Shown here in pieces: positions 2,282 through 61,239 of a stretch of 64,000 nt of DNA. Position 1 is the first letter of the stretch. Each line of letters starts with the position of its first letter. Where the stretch lies: contig OZ316895.1 of assembly GCA_973895155.1 (NCBI GenBank), forward strand, positions 5,972,687-6,036,686, written 5' to 3'. This DNA comes from Marsupella aquatica (Eukaryota; Plantae; Marchantiophyta). Under the pieces are notes generated by a model. That model saw nothing but the letters and a program-made list of their open reading frames with translations, was not told the DNA's origin and searched no databases. A program made the translations under genes and the position numbers.

Positions 2282-2282
2282 A

Positions 2283-2830: not shown

Positions 2831-3129
2831 AGTTTTGGATGCGCTCTGCTGGTGTTATAGATCGTCCATTGGTGAGCTTGCGGCCTACTGAGACAGTAGT
2901 GGCCACAATTGGGGGCGAGCAAATAGCCCATGGACCTATGGCAGGATTGACCAAGGTTGGACAAATTGTTGAGCAAAAAGGGACTGCTCTTGAAACTATT
3001 GCTATATAGCAATCATCAGCTATCTTTTCTACCCTACAAAAGGATATTAGGGATTTGGTGAAGAGTTGCGAGCCACAAATTGGTCCTAAGTTGATAGGGG
3101 AGGAGAGATATCGCATGCATCATTCCTAA

Positions 3130-4645: not shown

Positions 4646-6031
4646 CACTAGAAGAAACCCACCCTTTCTGAGACCACAAAGAACGTGACTTGTCCGAGAC
4701 CTTCATGAAATAGCGACTCCAAAGTTGTTGGTGTCATGTTAGTCACACCTTCTTGACTGAGTTTTGGTGAAGTTTTGAGGAGTCATGTTTACAACTTTTA
4801 GGGAAGTTGTAACTATAACTCAGTTAAGGCAATTAGGTTGAAGTCATACAAGCGACTCTACATTAGCGTACAACTTATGAGAGCACAACATTTGAGCCCT
4901 TCAACCTTAAAGTATGAGATCTAACCCAATACATATGATTTTGGATACACCATATGTCATCCCACATAGATTTAATTATAGTCAGGTCATACCATTTTAA
5001 ACCATTAGTGAGTATTCCATCATTATTCCTGCCCCCATTTAGACACCATGAAGCGCGCCCCAGCCCCATTCAACTGCAAAAAGGATTTGTGAAAGCTTGC
5101 TAACCTAACTTAATGCTTTTTGTAGTCAATCTCTAATTTTTCTATCGCCGTCTTCTGGTCGTGCCAAAGGCGTGCTTAATTATCACCCAATTTCAGCCTC
5201 ACATATGTAGGTTGGGTTTACTTATTGCCATGCCCCGTAAACCTTCATGTTTCCCATGCCCCCTTCATATATGACAACCAATGCATGGTTCATGTTCAAT
5301 ATAAGTCCAACTTAAATGTTCAACTTAAATATATATGATCAGCTCTTCACTACCCCAACCCTAAAAAAATGTACTTTTCATAATGGTAATGTGGGGTCAT
5401 ATATACCTGACTATTTGGCCACATTTTCACCAAAGGGGGTGGTTCAAAGTTGTGACTAACCACTCACCCCACATATAACTATTGCGTAAGTCCTTTGGTT
5501 TCAAAGGAAAAAACTAATTAGGCAAATCATAGACTTTTGTGTCTCTTTTGTGAACTAATGTCTCCACTTCAATGTGCGTGAGTGTGCCTTTGGACACAAG
5601 TTTAGGGTGTGCGGGTTTTGTTTAACACGGCAGTAGAGTGCAAAGTTGAGTTGAATGTGCGCGGGAACTCAGCGGTGTGAGAAAAACTCGCTTGTCCATT
5701 GTGCTTACGGCCGGGGATATTCATCGTGCCTGAAGGTTTTGTGAAGGGTTTTGTGCGAGGAGCTTTACGGACTTCACTCCCGCTTGAGAGATGGTGATGG
5801 CAGGCAGGTGCAGCAGCAGCGCTTGATCAAGGTGCAACTTTATTGCGTAAGTCCCTGCTCGTCGTCTGGATATGTCATTGTTGTCGGGGTCTTCATGCTC
5901 ATCTGATTCGTCTTCTGCTCTTTGTGGCCGAGAGTCGACTACCTCACTCACTGACTTCTTGTCCAATGCATACCACAACCCTATTCCTTGTTCTCAGTCT
6001 GCGAGTTTGTGAGCTTTGGACCAGAGCAGAT

Positions 6032-9000
6032 TGTGGTGCGTCCCATGGCTCCCTAAACCCAAGAAACCCCCCAGCTCAAGCCGATTCCCGCAGGTTTCGT
6101 GCTTGGCGAGGCTGTTTCCGCGGCTTAGCGGCATGGGACGCTGCTAACCTTCTACTACTACTATTAACATTTTACACACATATACTGGACAGATCCTTCA
6201 TCGGGTCATGAGATACGTAGCCGGCCTAATATAGGCCTTCCCCTGTCTTCCCCTGTCTTCCCCTCCGTCTTGTTAGGTATGTTTGGATTCCGCCGCCGGA
6301 ATGATCCCCAATAGGCTTGGTTAAGCCGCTAAGACCTCTCTTAGCTCGACACATCCAACTCTCACTCCCCTGCTTACTTTCCTTCCTTCTGTTGATGTGG
6401 GCACTCTTCACACAAGTTAATGCGACACACAAATAGCAAAATGACTCATTCTGACTGAGTCATACCATGCACTTGCCATACAAACAGTACATCTCATACA
6501 CAAGTTCTGCGAACTAAGCCGTGAGGCCAACTCTATTCAGCTCTTAGGCATGAGGAAACATGAATATACACAAGGGTCACTGTATGACTAACCGAGAGCT
6601 TCTCGTACTACTTGATCCCAGCCCGGCTGGTGCAAACTAAAAACTTGCTAAAGAAGAGGCCCTGAGCTCCCCGCTGCCCAGGTACTTATCCTGGTAGTGG
6701 ATCCGCCATTCTTTGCATCGTAAGCCTAATCTACTTAACAGTAATCTACTTGCCCGAATCTACCTATGTACAGCAAGGCAGGAGCACAAGTGTTGCTCCT
6801 ACCAGTGGGACCGCAATCCCACTAAGCTAAGTGTCAGGGCCGCTCCTGGTTCTGATCCTAATCCTAAACGTGGAGATCCGCGCCCGCCCTGCCCACTCAC
6901 GCCTCCTCCCTCCACGTCCGCCCTCCCTAAAAGGAACGGCGCCCTTGCACCGTCACGACACCGGTGGTGGATCCTTAATGGACGCCCCCAGCGCTTCCTC
7001 CTCAGCCACTGCCGTAGGCTCATTCCCTGACAGATTACCTGCCCTTGACTGAGTCAACTCTCCATCGGCCTGACTGGGTCCACCATCGGCGTCGGCATCG
7101 GCTCGAGAATCGGTTACGGCCTCAGCCTCGGCTACGGTCTCCCCGGCCTGCTCAAGAGGCGGATCTGGAATACTGGCCTCCTTACTGAGTAGTTCGGCTT
7201 GGGCCGCACCATCCCTACCTGTGATCATAGCGGGATCTATTGCCGTATTCATGTCGGAGGATGGTGCTGGTTCTACCTCTTTGGTCACCACGGCTTGTGG
7301 AGTCGGATTACTCCTTGACCCTGAAGGTTTCCGCTTTTTCTTCTTTTCTGGTTCGGCAGCTGGTCCCTTCCCCTTCCCACTTACCTCCGGCACTGGTGCA
7401 GTTGGCGCGGCTTTTTCTTCGGCCAGTACCACTCTTGGTAACTTGGTTGCCCCAATTGGAGTTGGGCCTGATGAAGACAAGCACCTAAATACTGCGGCTT
7501 GTTTCTTCAGCCGCTCCGTTTGGTTGTCGGCCCGCCGCTGGAGGTTCTCCATCTTCCTCGTGATTTCCTCCAACTCCTCCTGGGTCTCATCCAGGTCCTT
7601 GCGTGCCTCCTCTAGTTCCTTCTGGGCTTCCTCCCGTTCTTGTTTCAAGGTAGTCCTCTCCTCCTGGGTTGCTTTTAGCTCCTTGTCGAGCTCTGCAATG
7701 ATGACAGACTCCATCTGGTTCATCTTGGCGTAAGTCTGTTCGAGCATCTCGTCCTTCTCCCTTAGGTCGGCCTTGAAGCTGGCCGTCAGGGACGCAAGCT
7801 CCTGCTGCAGCGCCATAATCCCTTGATAGGATTTCCCTAACTCGGCCTCCTGCTGCTCAAGGGCTCCGCAGATTTTCTCGAGCTCCCCTTTCAACGCCCA
7901 TTCCTTTCTTTGGGTCTCCGCCATGGCCCGGCTGTTGGCTGTTATGTGGGCCTCCTCTGTATTCTTCAGCTCTTGCTTCCACTTCTCCCTCTCTTTGATC
8001 GTGTCGGCCAACTCTTCCTGCGTCTGAGTCAGTTTATCCTTGATATTCTGATTATCAGCCTGCGCGGTGTCCAACTGCCCCTGCATGATGTTCAGCTCAT
8101 GTCGTTTAATCCGCAGTTCATCTTGGGCTTTCTTGGCCGCCCTTAGATCTTCAATCTCGGCTTCCATCCTCCTAAGCCGCCGAATGACCTCGTCCTTCTT
8201 GCTTCTCTCTAAAGCCACCGCTTCTTCTAATTGGTGCTTCTCCAACTGCTCCCTATGGAAAAAGGGTCCTACCTCCAACTCCTCTCCAAAGATGCCGAGC
8301 GCAAGTTCCCCACACATCTCACCATACTCCATGGCTCTATTCTTAGCGTAGGTGGAGTAAGTAAAAGTGATCGGCATCGCCCATCGCGGCCTCTGCTCCC
8401 AAGCCGTCCTGCGGATCTCTTCAATCGTGGCTAGAGGTTTGCTTCCTTTTTTGGCTAGCCGCCTGATGTCCTCCGGCCAATCTCCTCCTGGTAAATCCTT
8501 TTCCTTAGCCAGGGCGGCCTCCTCCTCCTGCTTGATTCGCTCCTGAAATTTCTGCACCGTCTGTTTTATGCCGTCGAAGCTCGGGGGAGCAACATCTGGT
8601 GGGGGAGACTCAGGGCTACTCTGCTGGTTGGGGTTCCCTCGCACTACCCTTGGAAGTGTGGGGACAAACCGGCCACAGGTCCTTACTCCTGGAACGTGAT
8701 GGTCCGACCCATAGCCGGAATTATCATGGCTGCAGTCCTCCACTGCCTCCTCTACCTCTTGGACGTCCGGCTTCTCCCTCTCCTCTTCGTCGGTAGGAGC
8801 TTCAGGCAATTCTGCCTCAGATTCGGAGCTTGAGGTTCCCACGTACATTCGAACACCTGGCTTGGATTCCGGCCTGATTCTCTCCTTGTCTCCAGCAAAG
8901 GGGTTTTCTCTTGTGAGCCGGTGTAGGCCTACCTCTGTAGTAGTGTCCTGCATTGTTGCCGTTGCCGTTGTTGTTGCCGATGCCGATTTCTTTTCTTTCT

Positions 9001-10700
9001 CCAGTAGTTTCAGCAGACTCTGCATGCCTGGTTGCTGCATCGGCAAGTCTTCCTTCCTGGGCCTAAACACCTGCTCGATCGTAGGACTAACAGGTGGTTG
9101 AGGCTTCTCAGCCAACGGCCTCGGCGTTGGAGCTTCCTCGGGTGCCCTTACCTGCAGGGGAAGTACCGGGGCAAAAGTCTGACCTCTGGCATACCGGCAC
9201 AACAGCGGCATGTGATAGCCAAGCCGCGACACGCTCCCCATGCCGATTACCTGCTGCTCCTCCTTTAAGATCTTCTTCAATTGGTTGAGGAGGTACCCGT
9301 TGTAGTCCCGGCTTGGGTCTGGCCTTTCTGCCAGATAGACCTGTGCCTTGCCGATCTCTGCCCTCGGCAAGTTACAATGCATGGTCACCCGCAAGAAGTC
9401 GATCATCTCTCCTATGTGCGGGTTGGTGCAGGTGTTCCGGAAGAAGCCATTCTTCGTTGATGGCCCGGGGAACGACCGGAACTCCTTGTCAGGCAAGGTC
9501 TTCCTGGTATCAACTTTGGTCTTATTGCCTATCGGCAAGCCAAACACTTCGGCAATTACCTTGGGAGTAAGATAGAAATCCTTCCCATATATCCTCGTGC
9601 AATTGGTCTCGGGTTCCCATGACCCCACGAATTCTAATAGGTCTGACTCCGGTACCTCCGGCTTCAGCCATGGTAATCTTACAAAGGCCTCCAAGCCGGA
9701 TCCGGCCATGAAGCCTTGGTACTTCTTGGTCTGCATGGCCGTAAAGCATGCATCCTCCTCCCGTGCAAAATGTAGTTGCACCTCCACCGGTAGGGTTGCC
9801 GCCCAGCCCTTCCAGGTGTCATCCCTGGTTGGAATGGCCTTGATGGGATCGACCTCCTCCTCTTCGGCTTCTCCCTGCCTCCTGCTCTGCTGCTCGGCTA
9901 GCTTCTTTGGTGCCGCCGACCTCGTTCTTTTTGCCGGGGTGGCTTCATCGTTGACGGCCCCCTTCCTCTTCATCTCTGCTGCCGTGGAGGTTTCTCCTAG
10001 CACCGTTGCCTGGGTCCACCTTTCCGTGCTACCCTTTAATTCCCAGTGTATGTCGTTGCATTTCTTGATGGCCTCTCGGATGCCGACGACGCTGTCTTTG
10101 CAAAACAGAAGATCGTCGAGTTGATTGGAAGTAGGCGTCCACAGGAACTCGTCCTTGATGAGTTTGCCTCCTAAGAAAGCCGTCTTCTGCAGCTCCCACA
10201 ATCGAGCGAGCTCCTGCCGTTCTCGAGCTGCCCTTTCTGACTCCTCGTCCTCGTAAGTCTTGATGTACTCAGTTGCCCGTTCGAACAGGCATCCCCAGAA
10301 ATGTGCCGCTTGATTGACGTTGCTCATACCCTCCTTAGGTCGATCGTCGGTATCTACTCTCTCCCCGAGTGCTTGCCTAAGCAGCTGACAGTAGTTGGCC
10401 TCCCGTAGTCGTCTGCCTAGTTCGTGCTCGCAAATGAGCCACCATCTCCTGCAAGCACTCCTTACCCCTCTCCTCCGCCGGTCCTTCTTCCCGTTGATCC
10501 TTCCTAGCCGCCGACGCTTAACGCGCCCTAACCCTAATCGGGTTTTCACCCTCAGCCTTACCTCCGGCCTCGGCCCGGGTTCCATGGTTGCCCCTAATTG
10601 TTTATATTTTCCTTGTTTTGTCCCTATACTAAGGTGTTCCTAGGGTGCCTTCCTGCTTTACCCACTTAACCGGCCGAGTGATTCCTGTCTAGGCATCACA
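6032..10700 (-). mobile_element. Family-A 4669-bp solo-LTR-like element (copy A1, intact)
   Basis: Termini TGTGGTGC...GCATCACA (imperfect inverted repeat). Perfect 5-bp TSD CAGAT at 6027-6031 and 10701-10705. No internal direct repeats and no RT/IN motifs. Confidence 0.95.
6953..10585 (-). CDS. 1210-aa element-encoded protein: PMD/plant-transposon-like domain, low-complexity linker, long coiled coil, basic NLS-like patch
   Basis: Uninterrupted ORF. The motif LLEFVGSWEPETN...FYLTPKVIAEVFGLP resembles the Plant Mobile Domain core (ERWxPETHTF...ITLxDVxxLxGLP). About 250 aa of heptad-rich E/K/Q/L sequence follow, then EKKKKRK. Synonymous-biased divergence from copy A2. Confidence 0.9.
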   Translation of the reverse strand: MEPGPRPEVRLRVKTRLGLGRVKRRRLGRINGKKDRRRRGVRSACRRWWLICEHELGRRLREANYCQLLRQALGERVDTDDRPKEGMSNVNQAAHFWGCLFERATEYIKTYEDEESERAARERQELARLWELQKTAFLGGKLIKDEFLWTPTSNQLDDLLFCKDSVVGIREAIKKCNDIHWELKGSTERWTQATVLGETSTAAEMKRKGAVNDEATPAKRTRSAAPKKLAEQQSRRQGEAEEEEVDPIKAIPTRDDTWKGWAATLPVEVQLHFAREEDACFTAMQTKKYQGFMAGSGLEAFVRLPWLKPEVPESDLLEFVGSWEPETNCTRIYGKDFYLTPKVIAEVFGLPIGNKTKVDTRKTLPDKEFRSFPGPSTKNGFFRNTCTNPHIGEMIDFLRVTMHCNLPRAEIGKAQVYLAERPDPSRDYNGYLLNQLKKILKEEQQVIGMGSVSRLGYHMPLLCRYARGQTFAPVLPLQVRAPEEAPTPRPLAEKPQPPVSPTIEQVFRPRKEDLPMQQPGMQSLLKLLEKEKKSASATTTATATMQDTTTEVGLHRLTRENPFAGDKERIRPESKPGVRMYVGTSSSESEAELPEAPTDEEEREKPDVQEVEEAVEDCSHDNSGYGSDHHVPGVRTCGRFVPTLPRVVRGNPNQQSSPESPPPDVAPPSFDGIKQTVQKFQERIKQEEEAALAKEKDLPGGDWPEDIRRLAKKGSKPLATIEEIRRTAWEQRPRWAMPITFTYSTYAKNRAMEYGEMCGELALGIFGEELEVGPFFHREQLEKHQLEEAVALERSKKDEVIRRLRRMEAEIEDLRAAKKAQDELRIKRHELNIMQGQLDTAQADNQNIKDKLTQTQEELADTIKEREKWKQELKNTEEAHITANSRAMAETQRKEWALKGELEKICGALEQQEAELGKSYQGIMALQQELASLTASFKADLREKDEMLEQTYAKMNQMESVIIAELDKELKATQEERTTLKQEREEAQKELEEARKDLDETQEELEEITRKMENLQRRADNQTERLKKQAAVFRCLSSSGPTPIGATKLPRVVLAEEKAAPTAPVPEVSGKGKGPAAEPEKKKKRKPSGSRSNPTPQAVVTKEVEPAPSSDMNTAIDPAMITGRDGAAQAELLSKEASIPDPPLEQAGETVAEAEAVTDSRADADADGGPSQADGELTQSRAGNLSGNEPTAVAEEEALGASIKDPPPVS

Positions 10701-13346
10701 CAGATGATCGGAAGCCTTGGACGAGAGACGCAGACTCCAATATCTAGCTTGAAAACAAACGGTGATTGATTTTATCAGGTGAGAAGATCGAGAGCTCTAG
10801 AGATGGCGATGGCGTGCGGGCGTAGCAGCAGCGCTTGATCAAGGTTTGTCTTCTGCTGCTAGTACTGGTGCGATTCTTTCTACTCTCGGCTTTTCTTGCA
10901 GAAACAACAGCTCGGATCTGAGGGCTATTGGCAGTGACACTGGTGCGCCAGTCCCCGCGGAGCTTATGGGATTGGGAGGTTTTGTTAGTTTCATTCAGTA
11001 GCAGAGTGGCAGGGTTGAAGGTCGTAGCGGAGAGCGGGTAGCGGAGTGGCAAGGTTTAGGGAGCTGTGACCTTCATTTGTTGTAAATGTTGGTAAGATGC
11101 CGTGACTTGATTGGTGTTGTCAAAGTTTCTTTTTACTTAGGTTCCTTCAAAGTTTCAGCAACGCAAATTTTTCTGAAAATGACTGTGACTGTGGGCTACA
11201 GCTGGTGAGGTGGAAGGGATTGCAAACGCGTTACTAATCTACAACCTTGGGCACGCTATCAACATATATCCAATCATCGAGCGCAAAGTCGATTAAACCC
11301 TCACAAGGTAAGACCCACTCATTCCTTTTCTTATAAGCTCTTATTGGGCAAACATCGCTCTCTGCGTACACCTTGCCAGCCAGGCAAGACCCATGATACT
11401 GTTCGACTACCACAGACAGTCCCAAGTGGCCAAGTGGTGCTTCTGAATTTCTGTTGTTGAGTTGCGCCTTCCCAGATGCCGTAGTCACTACTGCTCCTTA
11501 GCGTGCACCTACATAGGTGCTGACCCAATGAAGAGAGGGATTGAGCCTTGGTACTGTACTCCTACACAGTCTGAGCTCGGGTGCCTATTCTTCATTTCCT
11601 GTTGAATGTTCCATTTTTTTAGCGGATTGCTGCTCTGCCCTTTTGCCATGGGTCGTCGGTCTGCCGGATGCTATCAGCAGATTAAGAACAAGTCATATCC
11701 CAAGTCCCGGTGTTGCAGTGGTGTCCCCGACCCTAAGATGCCAGCCAAAATCATCTTTCTTGTTTCCTGCTACTGCTGATGTATGTATGTTCTCCCGTAT
11801 TTTTGCTTACTGATTGGTCTCTCCACACTTCTTGCTTGACATGACTGTTTCGCTCCTCCCTGTATGAGAACATGCCTTGTGCCCCGTGCTCTGGCGGTGG
11901 GGTGGGGGGGGGTAAACAGACAACCTTAAGGTCCACTAAATTTATAGGAACCGTGCAATCGTTCAGCTGATTTTAGCAGCAAGATCCCTTGCTTTCCCCT
12001 GTTTTTGCTAAGATCCCTCCCCACTAATCAATGCATCCTTTACTTTTCTCGGTGGCCCGTGCACCTGCCTTCCTACTTTCGTTCTTATGGACTTTCCTTA
12101 GGTTTTCTTTCACCTGATTTTGGACTTTTTGCTCCAGTGGAATCTGTCTTGACAACTTGTGTTTGTTCTAATTGTTAATATCTCAAGAGGGTCGTCAACT
12201 AAGCTGATAGGAGTCAAAGCTAACTACAAGCTAGCAAATACAGAGAATGCTCCCAAGTCGAGTCAGGAGGAAGTTACTAAAACTAGACCTTCACAACTCT
12301 CGAAACTGGAAAGTGAAATTCAGCCTGAGACATGCAGTTGAAGGCCACAAGGATAACTATATGGCCACACTGTCCCTCATTCAAGTTCAAAGTCCTCTTC
12401 AGATTGTCTGAACTCCTATCTGAACTCCTGAACTGGATGAAGTCCTGTCTGAATGTGAAGTTCAAATTGGCAATCTCAAATGGCAATTTCTGAACTCTTG
12501 TCTGAACTTCATCCACCCTTCTAAATTGGGATTTGTGCTACGTGTATAGACTCCACATTGTTGCTCCTCCCTTTCGGGCCAGCCCTCCTTGTGAAACGTA
12601 GGAGCACGATCATGGCACTTACACATAGTCTGACATTCAAAAAATGCTACTTCTCAGCAGCATGTTTCGAGCAGTTTGCCTGTGTGTTGAGCCTAATTAT
12701 TTGTTTATTGCTTTAGTAACATGCATGGCCAATTGGTTTCTCTTCATGTAAAGGCAAGATTTTGAAACTTACTACTTGAATTGGTGGTTTGAATTTAGTT
12801 AAGTGTTGAGAAATTAGCATTCACACTAACTATTTTTCTTTTGTGATTGAGTTCTCTTTGCTATTGAATGTATTGAATAATTATTTCATCACAGAAATTT
12901 TCAGAACAAACACGGAAGCACCAGGGGGCTGAGGATTGGATATTGAGGCTGAAGACATTGAGGTAATAAACTGGGTGTGGTTCGGGTGACAATGTTAGCA
13001 ACTGATGCTTCTTCAAGGGAACTTCCCATGTGCAGTTTATCCACACATGATTGACTTTGGTTCTTGCTGTTTTGCTTTTGGTGTACTCTTGAGTTTGGTG
13101 TCACTCTATCCTTTCCTGTAGCCTCGAAATAGGACGATTGTGTTTGGCTAAGATGCTAGATTGTGGCTTGTCTTCTTGCTTCCAGCTTGTGTATATTCAA
13201 TTAATAGAAGTTGGGAACGAAGTGATAATTGAATTTCCTTATATTAAGCATCTTGACCTAGAAACTCAATACATAAACTCCAGGAGTCCCTCGGGACATA
13301 AAATGAGCCAAATTGTTTCAAAATTGGGAACCTGCACCCGCACTAC

Positions 13347-13687
13347 TCAAACAAATGTGTTGGGCTTGGTGGCCTTGTAAGTCGTCTTTAGCTTTCGTGA
13401 TGGAGGTTGAATCTTGCGGTACGTCAAGGGGAACTTGATCTTTGAATCATGGAACTGCTTGGTACTTTCTCGCTTGCATAGAGAGACAGGGACTGTCGTA
13501 GTCTTGATGATCTGGATGCAAGGGAACCGAAGTCTATGACAAGAAGTCATATCATCATACATCTGTTCTACAGCTCCGTTCAACGTGGTATCATGATATT
13601 CCTTGTACATGTTGTGATAACCTGTACGACTCTGATACCTCACCCAGATACCGAAGTTCTTAATTGTGGTGGGCTTTTTTCGAAGAT
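13347..13687 (-). pseudogene. RPL18a: Captured terminal exon of 60S ribosomal protein L18a (eL20)
   Basis: [39 protein letters not shown]...IQIIKT...[18 protein letters not shown]...[12 protein letters not shown]. Preceded by an acceptor CAG (13690-13688) and a 1-bp frameshift. No upstream exons recognised. Confidence 0.92.
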
Positions 13688-14227
13688 CTGGTAGACACAT
13701 TATTCAGCATTTGCTAACTTCGAAACTAGAAGGGTAACACATTAAACAACAAAGAAACTCACAACATCCTTCTTTGGTCCTTCAGAGTCTGTACTTTGAT
13801 TATGAATTTTGACTGAGTTTCTGTTTACTGAAAGAATGTGACTGTGTAAGAGTTCCATTTGGCAGTGGATTGGTTGAAAGCACTTCATGCTAGTGTGTTG
13901 TCCATAGCTCTTCAACCAGCTTTCGTCTTCCTTGTCTTTCACCACTTACGATGACATCAATTCAGCTAAGACCATAGAAGGTTCCAAAGCATCTAACTTG
14001 TCAAATCGCATTCTGTTACATCAAGGACTAAGGTGTTGGGTATCAAAGGAGACAGCACAACAAACACGCTGAAAAGACTTCAGGACTGGGTTCAACAAGG
14101 TAGTGAAGGTGCTTACAACCATAGTAAGTATGCATTCTGTATCTTTCTCTGTTGATGCATAATGGGAGTTGTAGTTGGCAAGAGTTCCATAGGGCCAAAT
14201 ATGAACAGATCCAGAAGTATGTGTATG

Positions 14228-14779: not shown

Positions 14780-15687
14780 ATGGTGAGGACCCGCAACGCT
14801 GAACATGTGCGGCTTGCACGCAAGGCAGAGATGTTGCACCTTGAGTATGTCAGACTTGGGATCCTTCCAGCCCAGTCTGCATGGTACTTTGAGTACCCTG
14901 TTGTTTCCAGGAATAACTACAGCCGGCCTCTACCTGCTTCAGTACCCTTCCCGACATCCTTGGTATTTGTGTCTCTTGTACATGACCCGCCACAGGGGTA
15001 CACAACATCATCACTTATCAGTGGCTGATAACTGATATCAGTTATCTAAAAAAATTTAGAATCTCAGTTGAGAAGTTGAGATGGGGCCTTCAAACTTCAG
15101 CTCATCTCAATTGGGCAACTGAGGTTGATTCAATCTCGGCTGACCTCGCCGAGATGGGCGTACGGACCGAAAAAAAATCCCAAAAAAAAAAACCAAAAAT
15201 TTTCCCAAAAAAAAAATTTGAAAAGAAAAATTCCGGAATTTTTTTTCCCATCTCGGCTGGGCTCACCGAGATATGTGTCCGTACGGTACGGAAGCCTCAT
15301 GGCAAAAAAAATTTTCCTTCAAATTTTGAAGAAAAATTCAAGAATTTTTTTCTTCATTATTTTTTTTTTTCGCATCGCAACTTGGCGGCTGATATTAGGT
15401 ACACTAATGAAAGTGACTGATAACTGATGAGATTACTTATCTCCCCGCCACAAATTAGGTGCCAAGGGTGTGTGCACAGTTGCCAATATGACTGTCTTGC
15501 CTGTAGAGCTTTTGGCTCAAAATTGGATGACCGTTCTCTTGGATGCCGATTTTTGCACAGAGCACAATGTATCATCTGGAACCACTCGCCATCCTGCAGT
15601 GTGCCTGGTGATGTTACTTGTCCTGCCCTCCCAGACCCCACCACCGGTGACTTTGGTGTCTACACATATTTGGATCACATGCTCTAG
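14780..15687 (+). pseudogene. Small Cys-rich ORF (~160 aa) split by a ~420-bp insertion
   Basis: ORFs 14780-15028 and 15427-15687 join in frame (...YTTSSLI-SPPQIRCQGCVHSCQYDCLAC...) once the insert between the duplicated ACTTATC is removed. Confidence 0.55.
15019..15432. mobile_element. Non-autonomous DNA-transposon-like insertion (hAT-like CAGTG left end, defective right end)
   Basis: Flanked by TCACTTAT / TTACTTAT (7/8 match). Contains repeated CTGATAACTGA and TCTCGGC/CCGAGA motifs and A/T tracts. Confidence 0.65.
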
Positions 15688-16456
15688 AGGACCACTTGTC
15701 ACACCGCATGCATAGACCAGATACCATTGACCTATAGCTTAACACTCTGACTTCAACACAGAGGATATTTACTTAAAATTTTGATGTATGAGCAATTTTG
15801 GGTCCAGGGTTTAGGGTCAACAGTACATAACTTATCCTATTAAGCTTGCACTAAGTAAAATATCCTAATTTAAGAGGCTAGCAAACTCGCTTAAAAGTCT
15901 CTATTGAAAGACAGCTTTCATGACTGCTTTAACCTGGTGAACATTGCAACGTTCAATGAATTAATGGGCCATGTGATAACCTGTAAAATGTGATTTATGC
16001 CTCACTTATTGTCTCAGCCACTATCATAGCCTATTTAGGATGTATACATTTCAACTCTTATGACACTGCTTCATACCAATCCTCTTTGAAGAATGATTGT
16101 TTTACATGTCACGACTATTGTATGTGATTCAAATGCATGAAATGTTGTTGCAGATCTCATTTGGTGAATCATAGCCACAATTAAAATTGAGGTGTTGGTG
16201 GAGCAATTGTATTAGGGAATCAGTTTTGTGTGTTGGCTCAACATACCAAAAGTATGTTTGCTCTGCATCCTTGTGTGGCCATTCCAATTGATTGCAGTAG
16301 CAAATGCCTTTGTACCTTAAATGCTAAATATATTTTACTTTCTGTGCAGTTTGCTAAATTGTAGAGTCTATCTAAATACCTTTGTACCTTAAATGCTAAA
16401 TATATATATTACTTTCTGTGCAGTCTGCTAAATCGTAGAGTCTATCTCATGTGCAG

Positions 16457-17137
16457 GCATGGCACGACCTAAAATTCAAGCCAAAAAGTGTGTGACAGAG
16501 GTGAGGAACACAAGTGTACTTGGGGCAGATGCTACTAACTTCTCTGCAAGTCAGATTTTCCAGAAGGCAGCTCATTGTTGTGCCATTTGTGACGATGGTG
16601 GGGGCCTGGTCATTTGTGAGGGCCCTTGCATGAGGCATTTCCACCTCAACCTGGAGTCTGACCTTGCTGCAGAAAACAATTGTCCAGGGGTGGGCCTCCC
16701 GTCAACACACCAGGGAGACTGGATGTGCACTGATTGTTTGGAGAAGCAGGCTAAGTGTGCACAGTGTGGAAAGTTGGGGTCCTATGAGGGCTTTGTTGAT
16801 GCCCCAACAATTGTTAGGAAATGTCCAGACCGTTTTTGTGTGAGATTTTTCTGTTTTGAGTGTTTGCCTTCTCATGCCACAGCTTGCCCACTTCATAGGT
16901 GCAAGGCATGTGGTGAGCATGATCATGAGTACTGGACTGACATAGTCCACTGTGCTAGGTGTCCCACCATGTGGCACTATCATTGCCTGAAAGATTGTCA
17001 AGCAGAGGGTTATGCTTGTGACAGAAATCTATGATCACTCTGCACATGGTGTTGATCGATGGATATTTTATTGTCATCGCCATGCCATTGATCCTACCTC
17101 GCGCACTCCTATGAGAGATCACATATCTTGGCTGTGA
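16457..17137 (+). pseudogene. EDM2-like composite PHD-finger module (one frameshift near 17008)
   Basis: CAICDDGGGLVICEGPCMRHFH...C.GVG...WMCTDC...CAQCGKLGS...CPLHRCKAC...CARCPTMWHYHCL, then in the shifted frame WIFYCHRHAIDPTSRTPMRDHISW. Collinear with the EDM2 PHD region and its IYC.HEID...TP.RDH tail. Acceptor TGTGCAG ends at 16456. Confidence 0.85.
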
Positions 17138-17794
17138 AGCTGAACATTGTACATGCATAGTGCACCTGATGTGGATGTACAATTTTTTGAGATTGAAGAG
17201 ATTCCAATTTTGAAAAGGAGTTGGGTAGGCGAGTTTATATAGGCAGCACTTATCTTGTGCTCTGGCGTCAGTGGCTGGGTACATGCCTATAAAAACTTAT
17301 CCTTACAAGCCTTCTTGGAAGTATTTAGGTTGAGTGGTCATTTTCATAAACACTTTCATCAGACTGCTAAATTAAAATAGGACTTCTAAGTTGTAAGCGT
17401 ATAAATTATCAGGCATGCAATTAATCAAATTGCCCTATAAGTTTGTCATTGAACGTATCCTCCTTTACAACAAAATATGTATGTGCCATGACAAGTTGGT
17501 TGCACTTCATTTCACCTTCGATATGGATTTTGTAGTATATATTCAAACAATGTCCTGCATCCGTGCAGGTGCCTAGTACGTATTGTTCACATATCCCTTG
17601 TACCTATCAAAATTTGACCTGAGCACCAGTGGGCCAGATCAACTCAAAAAGCAGGAATTTTGTTGTCCTTGTATTGTCAGGTGAACCCATTCTTCCAAAA
17701 TTCACTATCATCACGTAGGGTGTGTGTACATGGAGCCTGGGAAACGTAGAAAGTGTGACCACCCAACAGTGTTTATAGGGGTCAGAGCCATTTA

Positions 17795-18761
17795 CGGTAC
17801 ATGAAGCTGCTCAAAGGTCACGTGAGAACATATTACAAACCTGAAGCAAGCATGGCTAAAGGTTACATCAAGGATGAGACTCTGGGATTTATGACCGAAT
17901 ACATAGCACAATATGAGCATGTGAAGACCAGGGTGTGGAATTCTGATGAGGAGGAAGGGGTGATAGGTGAAGTACTGGAAGGGGCTGCAACCACAAAGAA
18001 CCTGACCACATCTATGAGGGACTTGGCACATGACTTTGTATTGCACAACACTGTGGTGATGGAACCCTGGATACAATGAGTACATACATGTGCTATAATC
18101 CAGTTCATGAGCTGAAATGTTGTGTGTGTGATTTTCTCCTTCAGCCTGTTCATATTTACCCAAGCTAATGCTGTGTGGTTGTTTGTTTAGGGAGTATGAG
18201 TCATTGAAGGCGGCCCATCCCACTGTAGGAACAACTTTTCCAGGTTTCATGGAGTGGATTAGAGTGGCAATTAGAGAGCATCACGAGACCCACCCAGACA
18301 TGGATGCAGACGTTTACCTACTGTCTAATGCCCCTAGCCTGAAAGTGAAGACTTACAAATGGATGAGAGCATATGGGAATCACTTTCGAGTGAAGGATGG
18401 TGATAGTGCCTATAGGGTGACAAATGACTGTGGGCTCATCACTGTATTTGAGCAACAGAGCCACAATCACGACAGGGCCTGGATGGAGATGGGATATGTG
18501 GGAGAATTAGTTGATATATGGGCTCTGGACTATGGGGCGGTGTCCAAACCTGTGATTCTTATGAAAGGTTCATGGGTGCGGCAGGATTGGCTTGGTAATA
18601 GGGCTACCATGAAGAGAGACAATGACGGTTTCTTGCTGGCCAATTTCAGAGGGAAATTGCTCGAATGGTCTGAGCCATTTGTGTTTCCCAGTCAGGTAGA
18701 GCAAGCTTTCTTCTTGGATGTGGAACACTCCCCAGGTTGGCGTGTAGTGTATCATAAATAG
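17795..18761 (+). pseudogene. CACTA transposase TnpD/TNP2 C-terminal half (DUF4218/DUF4216-like); catalytic N-terminal part absent
   Basis: MKLLKGHVR...PEASMAKGYIKDETLGF, YKWMRAYGNHFRV, GYVGELVDIWALDYG and EPFVFPSQVEQAFF...GWRVV. Intron at ~18080-18190. Confidence 0.9.
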
Positions 18762-19747
18762 GCCAGGCAACGTCGGATGGAAGGATCAAACCTTGAGTTT
18801 CATTTACACTCTCATAGTGCCTTTGATCGTCGGCGTTCAGACCAAGTGCCTGTAGTTCATGATAGCGGGGACTTCATTGACAAGGGTAGATGCATTTGCT
18901 GAAGGAGGCGAATTCAGAGATGCAGATACCAATAGTGTGCCTGTGCCATGAGTAATGTGAATTGTTTGCATGGACAATAGTGAGGGGATGTGTAATAAAG
19001 TAATTCTGAAGCAACACAGATATATGGATGGATGCCTGGTGATTGTGGTTGCATTGTATTATACGGGGTGACCATAGATGACATGTTTTTGTGGTCCAGT
19101 AGGATGGAACAGAGTGACACAGAGATGTGTGAGTATGAAAGGAAAGCTATGGAACAACGAGCATATGTGAAAGCCAAAATTGCAGAACTGGATCTGGAAA
19201 AGGATGTGGCTGAATTGTAAGGGAACAATTCTCAACTACACCCCTCCGCTGAGTTTGTGTGACATGAATAGTTCAATGTGGCACTGAAATTGTGACTGTA
19301 TTCTCATATTGGAATGTCGTAGAGCAGCAGGTTTTTCAAAGAAACAAAAGGAGTACGCAAGAAGGGTGACCATCACGATATCTGGGCGTGTGCGTCGAAG
19401 TGACAGGTTGAGCAAGAAGGTCGTACCTACAATGGCAGAATGTGGAGATGACATGGATGCTACGCAAGTGGGTGCAGACACTAGACAAGAAGATACAGAT
19501 GATGAGTATTTTCCAGAGGAAATGGATGAGGATGGGGGTTATGAAGATGAATAAATTGCAGAGCAGCCCCAAAAGAAACAGGTAAGTAGTTTTCCCAACA
19601 AGCTAGGTTTAGAGTTAAAAACTCTTGTTGAGAGGTTTCATATGTTCAGTACTACACCCTATGTACCTTGCTTAGTTCCTGACATTGTAGTTGGTGATGT
19701 GATGCAGCGTCCTACCAGTTCTATTTTGCCTGCAAAGCCTGTGCATG

Positions 19748-22700
19748 TGTGATGCCTAGCCAGGAATCACTGGGCTAGTTTAAGGGGAAAAGGGAAGTGT
19801 ACCCTAGAAACACCTTAGTATAGTTACATAAATAAGGAAAATATAAACAATTAAGGGTGACTATGGAACCCGAGCCGAGGCCGGAAGTAAGGACGCCAGG
19901 GGAGAGAATACGATTAGGGTTAGGGCACGCTAAGTGCCGGCGGCTAGGGGTAACCAACGGGAGGGAGAACCTTAGGAGGAGAGGGGTAAGGACCGCTCGC
20001 GAGGAGTAGTGGCTCATTTTCAAGCACGAACTGGGTAGGCGACTACGGGCGGCCAACTACTGTCAACTGCTTAGGCAAGCGCTCAGGGTGGGAACAGATA
20101 CCGACTATCAACTCGAGAAGGGTATGAGCAACGTCAATCAAGCGGCACATTTTTGGGGATGCCTGTTCGAACGGGCAACTGAGTACATTGGGACTTACGA
20201 GGACGAAGAATCGGAGAGAGCAGCTCAAGAACGGCAGGAGCTCGCCCGATTGTGGGAGCTGCAGAAAGCTGCTTTCTTAGGAGGAGAACTCATCAAGGCT
20301 GAATTCCTGTGGACGCCTACTGGCAACGAGCTAGACGACCTGCTGTTTTGCGAAGATAGAGTCATCGGCATCCGAGAAGCCATCAAACACTGCAATGACA
20401 TACACTGGGAGTTGAAGGGTAGCACGGAGGGGTGGACAAAGGCAACTGTGCTAGGAGAGACATCCACGGGAGCCAAGATGAAGAGGAAGGGGAACAACAA
20501 CGAAGAGGCCACCCCGGCAAAAAGAACGAGGTCGGCGGCACCAAAGAAGCCAGCAGAACAGCAAAGCAGGAGGCAGAGAGAAGCCGAGGAGGAGGAGGTC
20601 GACCCCATCAATGCCATTCCAACAAATGATGACACCTGGAAAGGCTGGGCGGCGACCCTACCGGAGGAAGTGCAATTACACTTTGCACGGGAGGAGGATG
20701 CATGCTTTACAGCTATGCAGACCAAGAAGTACCAAGGCCTCATGGCCGGATCCGGCTTGGAAGCCTTCGTAAGATTACCATGGCTGAAGCCGGAGGTGCC
20801 GGACTCAGACTTGTTAGAATTCGTGGGATCATGGGAGTCCGAGACCAATTCCACAAGGGTGTATGGGAAGGATTTCTATCTCACTCCCCGGGTGATTGCT
20901 GAAGTGTTTGGCTTGCCGATGGGTAATAAGACCAAGGTTGATACCAGGAAGACCTTACCTGACAAGGAGTTTCGGTCATTCCCAGGACCATCAACAAAGA
21001 ATGGCTTCTTCCGGAACACCTGCACCAACCCGCACATCGGAGAGATGATCGATTTCTTGCGGGTAACCATGCACTGTAACTTGCCGAGGGCAGAGATCGG
21101 CAAGGCTCAGGTCTACCTGGCAGAAAGGCCAGACCCAAGCCGGGATTACAACGGGTACCTCCTCAACCAACTGAAGAAGATCTTGAAGGAGGAACAGCAG
21201 GTGATCGGCGTGGGAAGCGTGTCCCGGCTTGGCTATCACATGCCGCTGTTGTGCCGGTATGCCAGAAGTCAAATCTTTGCCCCAGTACTTCCTCTATCGG
21301 CAAGAGCACCGGAGGAGGTCCCGGAGCAGAGGCCGGCAACGGAGAAACCCAACCCGCCCGACAGTCCTACAATCGAGCAGGTGTTTAGGCCAAGGACGGA
21401 GGACTTGCCGATGCAGCAACCAAGCATGCAAAATCTGCTGAAATTGCTGGAGAAGGAAAAGAGAACGGCAACGGCAACGGCACCAATGCAGGACATTGCT
21501 CCAGAGGTGGGCCTAAGCCGGCTTACAAGGGAAAACCCCTTTACTAGGGTCAAGGAGAGAAGGAGGCCGGAACACGAGCCGAGAGTCCGGATGTATGTCA
21601 GAGCCTCAAGTCCCGAAGCCGAGGAGAAGCAGGCCGTAGCTCCCGGCCACGACAAGGAGAACAAGAGGTCAACAAGGAAGCCGGAGGAGGAACCAAGACC
21701 GGTGAGAGGTGAAGCCGTGTTCACAACAAAACCAAGAGAACAACGGGAGAAGCTGGTAGTCCAAGCCGAGGAGGAGGCGGTAGAGGACTACAGCAATGAT
21801 GACTCCGGCTACAGGTCGGATCATCATGTTCCAGGAGTAAGGACCTGTGGCCGGTTCATCCCCACGCTCCCAAGAGTAGTTCGAGGAGACCCGAGCCAGC
21901 AGAGCAGCCCCGAGTCTCCCCCACCAGATGTCGCTCCCTCGAGCTTTGACGGCATAAAACAAACGGCGCAGGAATTTCAGGAGCGAATCAGGGAGGAAGA
22001 GGAGGCAGCCCTGGCTAGGGAAAAGGATTTACCAGGAGGAGAATGGCCAAAGGACATCAAGCGGCTTGCAGAAAAATGAAGCATCCCTCCAGCCACAATA
22101 GAAGAGATCCGCAAGGCAGCTTGGGAGCACAGGCCGCGGTGGATGATGCCGATGACTTCTACTTCCTCCACCTATGCTAAAAATAGAGCCATGGAGTACG
22201 GGGAAATGTGTGGAGAGCTGGCGCTCAGCATCTTTGGGGAGGAGTTGGAGCAAGGACCCTTTTTTCAGAGGGAGATGTTGGAGAAGCGCCAATTAGAAGA
22301 AGCGGTGGCTTTGGAAAGAAGCAAGAAGGATGAGGTCATCCGTCGGCTTAGGGCAAGGGAAGCCGAAATCAAAGACCTGAGGGCGACCAAGAAAGCCCAA
22401 GATGAGCTGCGGATTAAGCGGCATGAGCTAAATATCATGCAGGGCCAATTGGATACCGCACAGTCTGATAATCAGATTATCGAGAATAAATTGACTCGAA
22501 CCCAAGAAGAGTTGGCCGATGCGATCAAGGAGCGGGAGAAGTGGAAGCGAGAGCTGAGGGATGCAGAGGAGGCCCACATAACAGCCAACAACCAGGCCAG
22601 GGCGGAGACCCAGAGAAGGGAAAGGGCATTGAAGGGGGAGCTCGAGGTTATCCGCGGAGCCCTTGAGAAGAAGGAGGCCGAGTTAGGGAAATCCTATCAA

Positions 22701-24485
22701 GGGATTATTGCGCTGAAGCAGGAGCTTGCGTCCCTGACGGCCAGCTTCAAGGCCGACCTGCGTGAGAAGGACAATATGCTCGATCAGACTTACGCCAAGA
22801 TGAACCAGATGGAGTCTGTCATCATTGCAGAGCTCGACAAGGAGTTAAGAGCGACCCGGGAGGAGAGAGCTGCATTTAAACAAGAATTGGTGGAAGCCCA
22901 AAAGGAGCTGGAGGAGGCGCGCAAGGACCTGGACGAAGTGCAGGAAGAGTTGGAGGAAAGCACGCGGAAGCTAGAGAACTTACAACGACGAGCCGACAAC
23001 CAAACGAAGCGGCTGAAGAAACAAGCCGCAGTATTTAAGTGCTTGGCTTCATCAGGGCCAACTCAAATTGAGGCCACTAAGTTACCAGGAGTGGTACTGG
23101 CCGAAGGACAAGCCGCGCTATTTGCACTAGTGCCGGAAGTAAGTGGGAAGGGGAAGGGGCCAGCTGCCGAACCAGAAAAGAAGAAGAAGCGGAAACCTTC
23201 AGGGTCAGGGAGTAATACGGCCCCATAGGCCGTGGTGACCAAGGAGGTAAACCCAACACCGACCTCAGGCAGGGTTACGGCAGAGGATCCAACTACCCTA
23301 GAAGAAGGGGATGACAAAGCCGAGGCCAGGATACTCGGTAATGAAGCCGAGGTACCCAATCTGCCACTTGAGTGTGCAGGGGAGGCCGTAGCCGTGGCTG
23401 AGGCCGTAGCCGAGGCTGATGTTGAAGCCGATGTCGTTGCCGGGGGTGGACCCAATCAGGCCGATGGAGAGTTGACTCAGTCAAGGGCAGATAATTTGTC
23501 AGAGAACGAACCTACGGCAGTGGCTGAGGTGGAAGCGTTGGGCCGGGGCATCCACTGAGGAACAGACACCGCTGCCATGACGGTGGTGGAGGGCCGCTCC
23601 TTTCAAGGAGGGCGGACGTGGAGGGAGGAGGCATGAGTGGGCAGGGCGGGCTCAGATCTCTAAGTTTAGGATTAGGATCAGGACCAGGAGGCGGCCTTGA
23701 CACTTAGCTTAGTGGGATTGCGGTTCCACTGGTAAGAGAAACACTTGTACTCCTGCCTCGCTGTACATAGGTAGATTCAGTTAGGTAGATTAAAGCTTAC
23801 GCTGCAAGGAATTAGGCGGATCCACTACCAGGATAAGTACCTGGGCAACGGGGAGCTCAGGGCCTCTTCTTTAGCAAGTTTTTAGTTGCACCAGCCGGGC
23901 TGGGATCAAGTAGTAAGAGAAGCTCTCGGTTAGTCATACAGTGACCCTTGTGTATATTCATGTTTCCTCATGCCTAAGAGCTGAATAGAGTTGGCCTCAC
24001 GGCTTAGTTCGTAGAGCTTGTGTATGAGATGTATTGTTTGTATGGCAAGTGCATGGTATGACTCAGTCAGAAGGAGTCATTTTGCTATTTGTGTGTCGCA
24101 TTAACTTGTGTGAAGAGTGCCCACATCAACTAATAGAGGAAGGAAAGTAAGCAAGGGAGTGAGAGTTGGATGTGTCGAGCTGAGAGAGGTCTTAGCGGCT
24201 TAACCAAGCCTATTGGGGATCATTCCGGCGGCAAAATCCAAATATACCTAACAAGACGGAGGGGAAGACAAGGGAAGGCCTAGATTAGGTCGGCTACGTA
24301 TCTCATGACCCGATGAAGGATCTGTCCAGTATATGTGTGTAAAATGTTAATAGTAGTAGTAGAAGGAGGTTAGCAGCGTCCCATGCCACTAAGCCGCGGA
24401 AACGCCCTCGCCAAGCGCAGAATCCGCGGGAATCGGCTTGTGAAGGGGGGTTTCTGGGGTTTAGGGAGCCATGGGACGCACCACA
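19748..24485 (+). mobile_element. Family-A element, copy A2 (4738 bp, opposite orientation to A1, diverged subfamily)
   Basis: TGTGATGCC...GCACCACA with perfect 5-bp TSD GCATG at 19743-19747 and 24486-24490. Confidence 0.95.
19863..23558 (+). pseudogene. Family-A ORF, copy A2 (broken by several stop codons)
   Basis: Fragments 20088-22079, 22143-23228 and 23232-23558 are collinear with the 1210-aa protein. Confidence 0.9.
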
Positions 24486-27025: not shown

Positions 27026-29086
27026 CAGAGCAGGTCCAAACCCACAGTCTTGTGGGTATGGACGTCCACCTCAACCATGGGGATGTGAGTATATATCTAT
27101 ATGCCAGTTACTTGTGAAGGCATGGCACTCCTGAATTTCAGACTGCATATCAATTTTTGACATTGTTTGGGATGTATTGGATTCAGAGAACATGAAATTC
27201 TGTCCACCTGCCATTGCATGCAGATTCTGCCCAACCTGATTGGGCAAATGCTGGTAATGATCAATTCCAATGTCCACAAGGACAGACATGGGTTGAACCA
27301 GGTTGGGAGGATGGTGGTGGGTCGTGGAATGAACAAGGTTGGGAAGGTGGTGAAGGTGATTGGCAGGGATTTCAAAATACAATACCTACAAACGCTGGAA
27401 GAGGGGCAGGTAATGTCTGATCTTGTCAGCAATGGAAGAACTCATTATATGTGGAGTCCATTGACGTGGGGGGGATTCTGCACATGTATAATAATAGAAA
27501 ATGTATGTGTGCAGGTTGGATAGTCGAACCATCGACTCAAGTATTCACTAATGCCCCTATGCAGATGCAGCACGGAAGGGGGCCAGGTATGTTGGTGAAT
27601 GTTCATATATTTTCCTATAGTTTGTACTTAGTTTTCAGTGCATATGTTTGCACACACATACCTAGAAAGTGACATTATTTGGCTCCTGTACTAGGCTGGA
27701 CAGGTGGTCCAGGGTCACAACAATTCCAGAGTGCAGTCCCTGCACAAGCATCTACAGGCAAAGCTACAGGTATGTATGTTTGAAGAATTTTTCTTGAAGT
27801 GAAGCATTGAATGTTGCCGTCATCCATTCTTCTGTATGTAGTTCTCAAGCATGAATGGCATTGTATTTTCCTAGGTGGCTTCAGAACCCCTGGTAGGGTG
27901 AATGAAGGGGTGGCCAATACAACGCCCAGTACTACTGAGAGCAGTGCACGAGGGGAGGTGACAAAGAAAGGGAACGTAAAGTTGAATGAGAGACAATGGG
28001 TGGATGCTGAGTGTCCTCGTAAGAACCGTTGGCATGCTGATTTGAAAGCTGAAGTATTGCGTTGGTTAGATGTGAGTGTTATTAATTTTAAAAAACAACA
28101 TCCAAAAGATTGGAAGACTGTATGTGAAAATGTTGCTGCCAAATGGAATTATGTGGGCAGTGATTCAGATGGCGTGGACATAGGTTGCCTAGAGAGTACA
28201 GCAGGTAAAATCATAAAGCAAGAGAGGTGGAGAATGCATAAGGCTTGGAAGGAAGGTGGGGAGAAGCCAGATATGCCTCCACCAGCCAGTTGTGATGATA
28301 AAGTGTGGGCAAGGTTAGTAGCTTATTTTGTAACAGATGCTTCGAAAAAGAAGAGTTCACAGATGACCGAGGCCAGGTTGAGTGTTCAGAACCCTAATCT
28401 GACAGGAAGGACCGGCACTGCACCGACAGCAAAACGTTTGGTAAGAATCAATGGCCTAGCTATGTAATTTATGCTACACTATGTACTGTTTTTTAGTGTA
28501 AACCCATACATGTCAACTTTGTTTTTTAGTGTACATTCCCTGAATAATAATGATAACTTGTGTTTGCCATGCATGTGCAGAAAGCCCAATTGGGGCAAAG
28601 CCCTTCAAAAGAAGAGTTGAGGGCTGAAATTGTGAACACCCGGGCTCAAGTGGGTGCATTTGAATCCTCCAAGCATGTAAGTTATATGAGTTCTGATTGG
28701 TAATTGAATGACCTGCGTTGAATTTCAGGTGTACACTGTATATAACATTGATTGTGCATATATTGCCCAACATTTCATATGGAGTGATTGAACCTATACC
28801 CCTGTGTCATGTAGGGAGGTGGATCTTCACTTACAGAGATAAGTGGTCATTTGAAGGCTGTCGAAACATGTCTTCCAGAGATCAATGAACGTTTGAATTC
28901 ATTGACTGACTTGTTCCATGTGAACTTCAAGACATTAATGGAAGCTGTTGTGTCGGTGAGAGATGAAATTGATTCCAATTCTGCAGGAGTTCCACCATCA
29001 CCACTTGAGGTGGCAAAGTCAATGCACTCTTCTGGCATGCCAATGACATGTAGGCTTGAAGGTAAGGCCTTTACAACTGTGTGGGA

Positions 29087-29965
29087 TTTCCTCTCATGCC
29101 TCATTTCTCTCATGGATGTGTGTGTGTGTGAGGCAATCTGAGTGTATGATGGGACTAGCAGCGCCACTGAGAGGTGTACCAAGTGCATTGAAGTGGGTTG
29201 GGTGAGGGCTGTCACAGCTCTGATTGCTGAGAGTGGAATGGCAGAGTGATGGGGCAATGGCTTAGAAGTCCCTAAGCCGGGAATCAGTCAGGAGTCACTA
29301 ATTTATGGGTACATTCCGGTGGCGGAATAGAAATATACCTATGACAGTAAGCATACGTATAGACATTGCGCACCATAGTGCTAGGCCCTGTGTTTACGGG
29401 CCCGATAAGAAGACCCCTTCTCACCAGAACTATCATGAGCACTGGATCTGATTCCCAACCTTGGTTCTTAGGGATTAAGCTTGGGTGATGTGTGACAGAG
29501 TCTTGCTATGATGGTCTGGTGTTAAGGGCATAATTTGGTGTTTACCGGCCTTCACAACATCCCTTCGTGATCCTCAGGTACAAGGAGATGGTTTTGGCAC
29601 CCATAGTGACGTTTTTGGTGTTAAGACCCATGTCAATCGCGTGACACTCTACCTCTACCACGGGCATAACCTAGAGCTTGCCCCCTGCCATAGTATTGGG
29701 CACCAGCCTGGGATCTACCACTACTACCACCTCGCCAACCTTGATCAGAGGTCAGCCCCCCTGCTGGTATGGTGCATGCTGTGGTGCGTCCCATGGCTCC
29801 CTAAACCCCAGAAACCCCCCTTCACAAGCCGATTCCCGCGGATTCTGCGCTTGGCGAGGGCGTTTCCGCGGCTTAGTGGCATGGGACGCTGCTAACCTCC
29901 TTCTACTACTACTATTAACATTTTACACACATATACTGGACAGATCCTTCATCGGGTCATGAGAT
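29087..29965 (-). repeat. Inverted duplication of ~24300-25178 (LTR-B end + host exon + A2 terminus)
   Basis: Appears base-identical in reverse complement. The ORF-track translations 24303-24587/29678-29962 and 24370-24624/29641-29895 are identical. Confidence 0.95.
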
Positions 29966-61205: not shown

Positions 61206-61239
61206 CCTTCAGTCCTGAAATTCAGCCATCTAAATTATT

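Follow-up and report, generated by a model that had tools for sequence, protein, structure and literature searches.

The window analysed here, a 64-kb stretch of liverwort DNA taken at its full length, carries a broken copy of a gene whose sequence places it in a hitherto undescribed clade of short, stand-alone EDM2-type triple-PHD proteins. A selected gene family of this kind on mobile DNA is well supported, and its membership of a CACTA element is probable. The PHD fingers of EDM2 bind H3K9me2 (PMC7472560, PMC9910501), and EDM2 together with AIPP1 and ASI1 favours full-length transcripts through intronic heterochromatin (PMC7472560, PMC9910501, PMC7529245). Besides the PHD fingers, EDM2 has acidic, PGR, methyltransferase-like (ELP) and proline-rich domains (PMC7529245).

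A clade of short stand-alone PHD proteins

A word-index search returned three matches among 14 candidates, all of them 220-245 aa long, 55-77% identical and ending at HISW. When 1.84 billion representative sequences were searched with no length limit, 224 matches were obtained and the best 150 were examined. Among these best 150 of 224, the first eight were proteins of 131-245 aa, and plant EDM2-type proteins came next, several of which carry a DNMT1-RFD domain (52 proteins scanned). A best match to an unrelated PHD family, which would have spoken against the original prediction of an EDM2-like module, thus did not occur.

A clade-motif screen of 156 proteins matched 24, and 23 of them are clade members of 77-257 aa; P0016 was excluded because it retains the host-type His. 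Whole members are 220-245 aa long and end right after the module, and none of the 23 is longer than 257 aa. The module is clean and whole in P0001, P0002, P0003, P0008, P0153 and P0154, and nearly so in P0009 and P0268; the remaining members are partial, several visibly frameshifted and some perhaps cut by contig ends. A metagenome scan gave two loci (L001 and L002) out of 198 pattern matches, both with an uninterrupted coding region, L001 having a stop in its leader and L002 a frameshift; no transposase was found within their short flanks of at most 750 bases. This mix of whole and broken members fits a transposon gene.

The protein had been described as a reader-only version without the C-terminal domains of EDM2. 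Whole clade members do stop after the module, and the acidic, PGR, methyltransferase-like (ELP) and proline-rich regions are absent from them. However, the missing domains need not be the work of a transposon, because liverwort paralogs already end at or soon after their PHD fingers. Trimming to the reader module has apparently happened more than once.

Outside the clade we also noted five short PHD-only EDM2-type proteins of 226-344 aa (P0134, P0064, P0016, P0017 and P0024). P0064 is a named Marchantia protein, 280 aa long, short and PHD-only.

The window holds a decayed copy from a multi-copy family

The gene and its upstream region are laid out as follows.

16302..16456, + strand: putative 3' end of a 5'-UTR intron, with a 72-bp tandem duplication and an AG two bases before the ATG
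16459..17137, + strand: triple-PHD gene with a basic leader, three NSD/EDM2-type zinc fingers and then a stop; broken here

The intact relative P0001 has 226 codons in a single coding exon. For the window copy, the three fingers and the FYC.RH...TP.RDH tail expected between 16457 and 17137 were found, but they do not lie in a single frame. The frame that begins with the ATG at 16459 runs for 191 codons to a stop at 17032-17034, and the tail with FYCHRH and RDHISWL sits in a different frame whose stop is at 17135-17137. Compared with sister contigs, a 2-base deletion near 17023-17026 cuts the last finger of the window copy. Part of the stretch occurs in seven public sequencing runs, none of them recorded as RNA, and two extra bases that restore the frame at the break were present in contigs from all six runs compared (X1-X6). 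One allele, AG after 17022, was seen in 8 contigs of X1, 12 of X2, 4 of X3, 2 of X4 and 1 each of X5 and X6; a second, with C after 17025 and C after 17026, occurred in X1, X2, X3 and X5. The deletion seems to be private to the window copy or nearly so.

Seven substitutions in the gene relative to sister contigs, a tool-chosen subset, comprised three silent and four residue-changing ones, and in three of these four the sister letter encodes the residue of P0001. Sister contigs over 4.7 kb numbered 260 to 4659 per run, at 80-100% identity, and some of them matched parts of the PHD gene of the window copy at about 86-88% identity. Because the sister contigs restore the frame and show these 86-88% subfamilies, the window locus is a dead, decayed member of a many-copy gene family with subfamilies. 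It is not a single-copy fragment absent from its sisters: many copies were found in the sister contigs of the six runs.

Upstream of the gene, the tandem duplication appears as a self-match of 16302-16373 with 16374-16447. The acceptor-like AG claimed at 16456 is indeed present, at 16455-16456, and the transcript may be spliced there.

The PHD module is conserved in its ligands and remodelled around them

Pfam profiles placed three NSD-type PHD fingers in order on the window copy, PF23011, PF22908 and PF23004, with E-values of 3.6e-5, 8.6e-3 and 1.5e-3, each below its curated cut-off. Fourteen host proteins, and no clade members, served to define 24 Cys/His ligand columns; with its break bridged, the window copy has Cys or His in 24 of 24. 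Around these positions the module has been rebuilt throughout the clade. Finger 2 has a Cys in place of His and has lost about 22 residues, a basic leader is present, and Q-x-A/S-A/P-H replaces the acidic patch before finger 1. The finger-1 core, D/E-D/E-G-G-x-L-x-x-C-D/E-G, is largely retained and resembles PHD1 of AIRE. AIRE PHD1 was also the only protein matched (two matches) in a sequence search of solved structures, and a structure with histone H3 is listed for it. Since the acidic residues are replaced and finger 2 has both the His-to-Cys change and the loss of about 22 residues, the mark specificity of the clade fingers may differ from that of EDM2.

The fold of an intact clade member was predicted with a pLDDT of 87 and a pTM of 0.82 from a 46-row, mostly host alignment, and this confidence is partly borrowed from the host rows. 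This prediction replaced an earlier, poor one made on nine rows (pLDDT 62). The best structural match of the predicted fold was the NSD2 PHD-C5HCH module (Z 5.4, rmsd 2.6, 75 residues aligned), a middling score. PZP domains, which had the best Foldseek E-values, were rejected as the fold at a TM of about 0.2. No solved structure of the EDM2 PHD module turned up in the structure searches.

The clade is under purifying selection

In ten clade rows, the ligand columns hold Cys or His in 239 of 240 cells. Pairwise comparison of five sublineage representatives showed 23-24 of the 24 ligands to be identical, compared with 32-54% of other sites. For three DNA sequences compared over 184-188 codons, pS was 0.79-0.83 and pN 0.33-0.41; pS and pN were used in place of dN/dS because synonymous divergence is saturated. 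Neutral simulations were run 2000 times at each of 0.05, 0.1, 0.2, 0.3 and 0.4 changes per site, and the open frame survived together with all 23 cysteines in 54, 1, 0, 0 and 0 of them, respectively, so that at comparable divergence none of 2000 simulations retained both. Ligands preserved in 239 of 240 cells, against 32-54% identity at the remaining sites, amount to strong purifying selection on the clade.

The original prediction had proposed retention under selection, unlike a passive fragment. At the level of the family this is borne out by the ligands, by pS and pN and by the simulations, although the window copy itself is decaying. Neither neutral decay of the family nor, among the host genes found, a near donor was seen, given the purifying selection and the long stem of the clade. 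Such long retention in a mobile gene would imply a benefit to the copies carrying it.

Liverwort paralogs are the likely relatives of the clade

The whole module could be extracted by pattern from 98 of 159 sequences, and 39 of these were placed in a careful tree, for which the labels of the flowering-plant and outgroup rows come from clustering and only in part from look-ups. The ten clade rows group on one branch (support 100/100) whose stem measures 1.36 and which splits into four deep sublineages. The sister group of the clade has no support in this tree, where long branches are in play. A fast tree had placed it near liverwort paralogs, but with weak support beside a long branch, and we did not retain this placement, which is absent from the careful tree. 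The host paralogs of Marchantia, Riccia and Calypogeia fall outside the clade in the careful tree. In AU tests, a join with flowering-plant-type EDM2 rows was rejected (p 0.026), but joins with liverwort C-terminal-PHD paralogs (p 0.46), a moss group (0.45) or liverwort long EDM2 (0.18) were not. EDM2-type homology is supported, but flowering-plant-type EDM2 is an unlikely donor.

Several characters are shared with liverwort proteins. The finger-3 loop has 13-14 residues in the clade, 12-13 in liverwort paralogs and mostly 15 elsewhere. A Trp after C..CP is found in 10/10 clade rows and 7/7 liverwort paralogs, against 9/81 others, and an aromatic-x-His tail in 10/10, 5/7 and 2/81, respectively. 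Against the clade profile, the three top-scoring host proteins are liverwort C-terminal-PHD paralogs. These shared characters favour liverwort EDM2-like paralogs as relatives of the clade, and the donor may have been a paralog already without C-terminal domains. The paralogs in question (MARPO_0005s0286 and MARPO_0172s0021 of Marchantia, R1sor_003797 of Riccia and CAM6087769.1 of Calypogeia) resemble the clade in ending at or shortly after the module, in a finger-3 loop of 12-14, and in the Trp and the aromatic-x-His tail. Unlike clade members, most of them retain an N-terminal region of 400-550 aa, the finger-2 His and a helical insert.

The gene probably lies in a CACTA element

The surroundings of the PHD gene contain the following features.

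13347..13703, - strand: captured fragment of ribosomal protein L18a (RPL18a; E 1.3e-16), with a depth in sister contigs that resembles the rest of the family
14780-14985 + 15444-15684, + strand: Cys-rich frame of 149 codons with 9 Cys, split by the insertion at 14995-15443
14995..15443, no strand assigned: insertion with a 9-bp target duplication (14986-14994/15444-15452) and an empty site in sister contigs
17138..17794, + strand: spacer separating the PHD gene from the TnpD remnant, present in many copies in sister runs, up to the junction 17794/17795
17795..18875, + strand: 3' remnant of TnpD (end of DUF4218, then DUF4216), from profile matches
19748..24485, + strand: 4.7-kb TG...CA insertion with a 5-bp target duplication, between TnpD and TnpA
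27811..29141, + strand: TnpA-like exons (Transposase_24, E 2e-4, below cut-off), from a profile match

TnpD- and TnpA-type coding sequence stands here in tandem on one strand, and the PHD gene lies on that same strand; the DUF4218, DUF4216 and Transposase_24 matches are all below their curated cut-offs. The PHD gene had been placed just 5' of TnpD. The two are adjacent, but only the last quarter of TnpD is there, matching positions 746-1038 of a 1120-position profile (66 of 96 full-length matches used), and it is broken by an in-frame stop at 18759-18761. The catalytic Transposase_21 part is absent from the window, which therefore holds no whole TnpD of the kind that an autonomous CACTA would have. 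No TnpD profile match was found upstream of 17795 in the 127 frames scanned in the window. Within the spacer the TnpD profile likewise detected neither TnpD similarity nor a TnpD start, and a CCPC stretch near 17660, considered as such a start, found no support in the profile of 66 full-length TnpDs. The remnant is 52-56% identical to TnpD of the liverwort Calypogeia, the only longer TnpD relative found (1 of 154 candidates). Our reading is that an internal deletion removed the first three quarters of TnpD from the window element; a single such event is the simplest account, since the 5' part of TnpD would be expected on the left had something inserted into the gene.

Sister contigs bear on how these parts belong together. 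Spacer contigs cover 17191-17739 in X3 and X5 and 17191-17476 in X6, and none of the contigs listed for the sister runs bridges 17739-17795. In X1, X2 and X3, contigs extend beyond 17794 on its 5' side with what looks like intact TnpD: translated, their loose ends give the TnpD motif found ahead of RYMK in intact relatives. In X6, 81 letters of the main TnpD contig are unaligned before 17794. Because the X1-X3 contigs continue into intact-like TnpD and the X6 contig diverges, the junction 17794/17795 is not universal. In X3 the contigs of all four parts (RPL18a side, spacer, TnpD and TnpA side) have depths of about 1300-2000, which hints weakly at a single family. Later insertions and rearrangement separate the TnpA-like exons from the TnpD remnant; sister contigs show the joints 19742>24486 and 24613>27026, where the later insertions are absent, as well as 14985>15444, a joint with 9 shared letters. 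In this rearranged locus, no candidate pair of CACTA/G terminal inverted repeats scored above 11/14 and none had a matching 3-bp duplication. Adjacency, a common strand and similar depth thus speak for a CACTA element carrying the PHD gene, while the termini and a bridging contig among those listed did not come to light; on balance, the gene probably lies inside such an element.

The Cys-rich frame at 14780..15684, which matched no Pfam family and nothing in the atlas, shares the many-copy region of the PHD gene and is a candidate second accessory gene. The insertion that splits it is bounded by long, imperfect inverted ends and contains an A/T-rich palindrome, and we infer it to be a Mutator-type MITE.

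Other features of the window

The 4.7-kb TG...CA repeat is present in three copies that are 85-96% alike, at 6032-10702 (-), 19748-24485 (+) and 29780-34446 (-). Its coiled-coil frame reaches 1228 aa and has no Pfam family above cut-off; the repeat resembles an unusually long solo LTR that carries its own gene. A 704-base inverted copy (24475-25178/29087-29790) is 100% identical, and the adjoining repeats are only 88-96% alike; it is either a very recent inversion-duplication or an assembly artefact. Two frames stand head to head, a DUF7869 frame of 491 aa at 59746-61221 (-; E 3e-44) and an NIF/FCP1-like phosphatase domain of 359 aa at 61436-62515 (+; E 7e-16). The pair is possibly a transposon with a phosphatase partner gene.

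Near the RPL18a fragment, a short frame at 11650-11750 (+), which had no Pfam match at E 0.5, resembles the start of ribosomal protein L10 and may be another captured piece of a host gene. Short AACCCG-type repeats are clustered in both orientations at 26340-26720 and could be subterminal repeats of a rearranged element. At 3526-4417 (+) and 34775-35776 (-), reverse transcriptase and RNase H fragments and a gag-like 333-aa frame that has no Pfam match are LTR retrotransposon remains. A weak match to the middle of TnpD at 50277-50562 (-; E 0.026) is perhaps a second decayed CACTA fragment. We also observed exons of a host RmlD-substrate-binding (epimerase-type) gene at 42561-44684 (+) and a very A/T-rich simple-repeat tract with a GC content of 14% at 48001-49000.

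Discussion

The clade shares with Arabidopsis EDM2/ELP1 (PMC7529245, PMC7472560, PMC3632883) three NSD-type fingers with the same 24 Cys/His columns, and the YC..H...TP.RDH tail is common to both. It differs from EDM2 in length (226 aa against more than 1000) and in the absence of the RFD, acidic, PGR, methyltransferase-like and proline-rich parts. It also has the basic leader, a shortened finger 2 with the His-to-Cys change, and many copies beside transposon genes.

Host genes with chromatin-related domains have been captured by DNA transposons before. Cases in point are VANC and KIU/Ulp1, captured accessory genes of VANDAL MULEs (PMC13317346), TET/JBP genes captured in fungal EnSpm and other elements (PMC12730594) and an NDX-B-like domain in EN/SPM3 TnpA (PMC13547354). 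Like the clade, these are cases of a host chromatin-related domain long held by a DNA transposon, and help against silencing is proposed or shown for them. In contrast, the clade gene, known from sequence, is a separate gene of the histone-reader type without a DNA-binding or catalytic domain. Among retroelements, CR1-like LINEs are said to carry a PHD finger. The polyprotein of Chlamydomonas Gypsy-7a_cRei also has one (PMC9940879). The retroelement PHDs so described are single fingers fused in element proteins, whereas the clade has a free-standing triple module beside CACTA genes. In the literature searched, with supplements and Repbase outside its scope, we found no CACTA/EnSpm element with an EDM2-type PHD or histone reader. 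The main text of a 2026 gene-capture review (PMC13317346) and that of a 2026 Arabidopsis transposon-protein atlas (PMC13547354) contain no mention of PHD.

Our best explanation, which we hold tentatively, is that the gene is an old accessory chromatin-reader gene of a CACTA lineage, probably a liverwort one, that would read silenced chromatin and so aid transcription and mobility. An EDM2-like host gene, probably a liverwort paralog with C-terminal PHDs, would have been captured, and the PHD protein would be expressed from its own ATG after a 5'-UTR intron. The basic leader would drive nuclear import, and the zinc fingers would bind histone H3 tails on the silenced chromatin of the element itself, which would help the element stay transcribed and mobile. 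Lacking any DNA-binding or catalytic domain, the protein plausibly works as an adaptor with a partner, and that partner, for instance the DNA-binding TnpA, might confer element specificity. It is doubtful that the PHD protein recruits AIPP1/ASI1, since it lacks everything that EDM2 has besides the PHDs.

The same accessory gene might instead be tethered to the TnpA/TnpD transpososome and steer insertions to chromatin that is safe for the element. A reader without an effector domain suits an adaptor, surface and ligand positions are strongly constrained, and a TnpA-TnpD complex has been modelled (PMC13547354). However, the PHD protein is encoded by a separate gene, unfused to the transposase, and we consider this role unlikely.

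A different element could be involved altogether, the PHD gene coming from another mobile element, or shuttling between transposon types, and being merely juxtaposed to the TnpD remnant. The sharp junction at 17794, the sister contigs that continue there into intact TnpD, the failure to find termini and the nested and inverted insertions close by would all be in keeping with this, and fungal TET/JBP genes do move between superfamilies (PMC12730594). Yet an insertion should have left the 5' part of TnpD on its left, where none was found in the window, and neither ends nor a target duplication of a second element were found, while contig depth is similar on both sides in X3. We regard such a juxtaposition as quite unlikely.

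Passive cargo is a third possibility: a selected short host gene family, one copy of which was amplified by a Pack-CACTA as happened with RPL18a. The window does resemble Pack-CACTA (PMC13317346) in having the RPL18a host fragment inside a non-autonomous CACTA-like region; short PHD-only host proteins such as the Marchantia P0064 exist, and the window copy decays. Unlike Pack-CACTA cargo, however, the clade gene has long been under purifying selection, we could find no near donor for it among host genes, and it is no recent neutral fragment. In addition, broken members occur in several deep sublineages, the same runs hold 86-88% subfamilies and two different in-frame alleles at the break, and the Marchantia, Riccia and Calypogeia host paralogs lie outside the clade, all of which makes passive carriage very unlikely. 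Least probable is a selected transposon accessory protein that is no longer a histone reader and binds another host or element protein with its fingers: the clade-wide loss of the acidic patch, the His-to-Cys change and deletion in finger 2 and the long stem would suit it, but the finger-1 core is largely kept and matches AIRE PHD1, for which a structure with histone H3 is listed.

Returning to the accessory chromatin reader, its most specific form is that a liverwort CACTA took the EDM2 reading module, trimmed it to a 226-aa third gene that together with TnpA counters the element's own silencing marks, and possibly added a Cys-rich fourth gene. In all its parts together this is rather doubtful. 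Maize TnpA binds the element ends and activates the promoter. The anti-silencing genes described so far in plant DNA transposons are mainly those of MULEs and act through DNA binding. If the accessory-reader explanation is true, reading the marks themselves would be a second anti-silencing route, in an early-diverging plant lineage. The clade protein would also be a compact natural version of the EDM2 PHD module, predicted to fold well and easy to express and assay.
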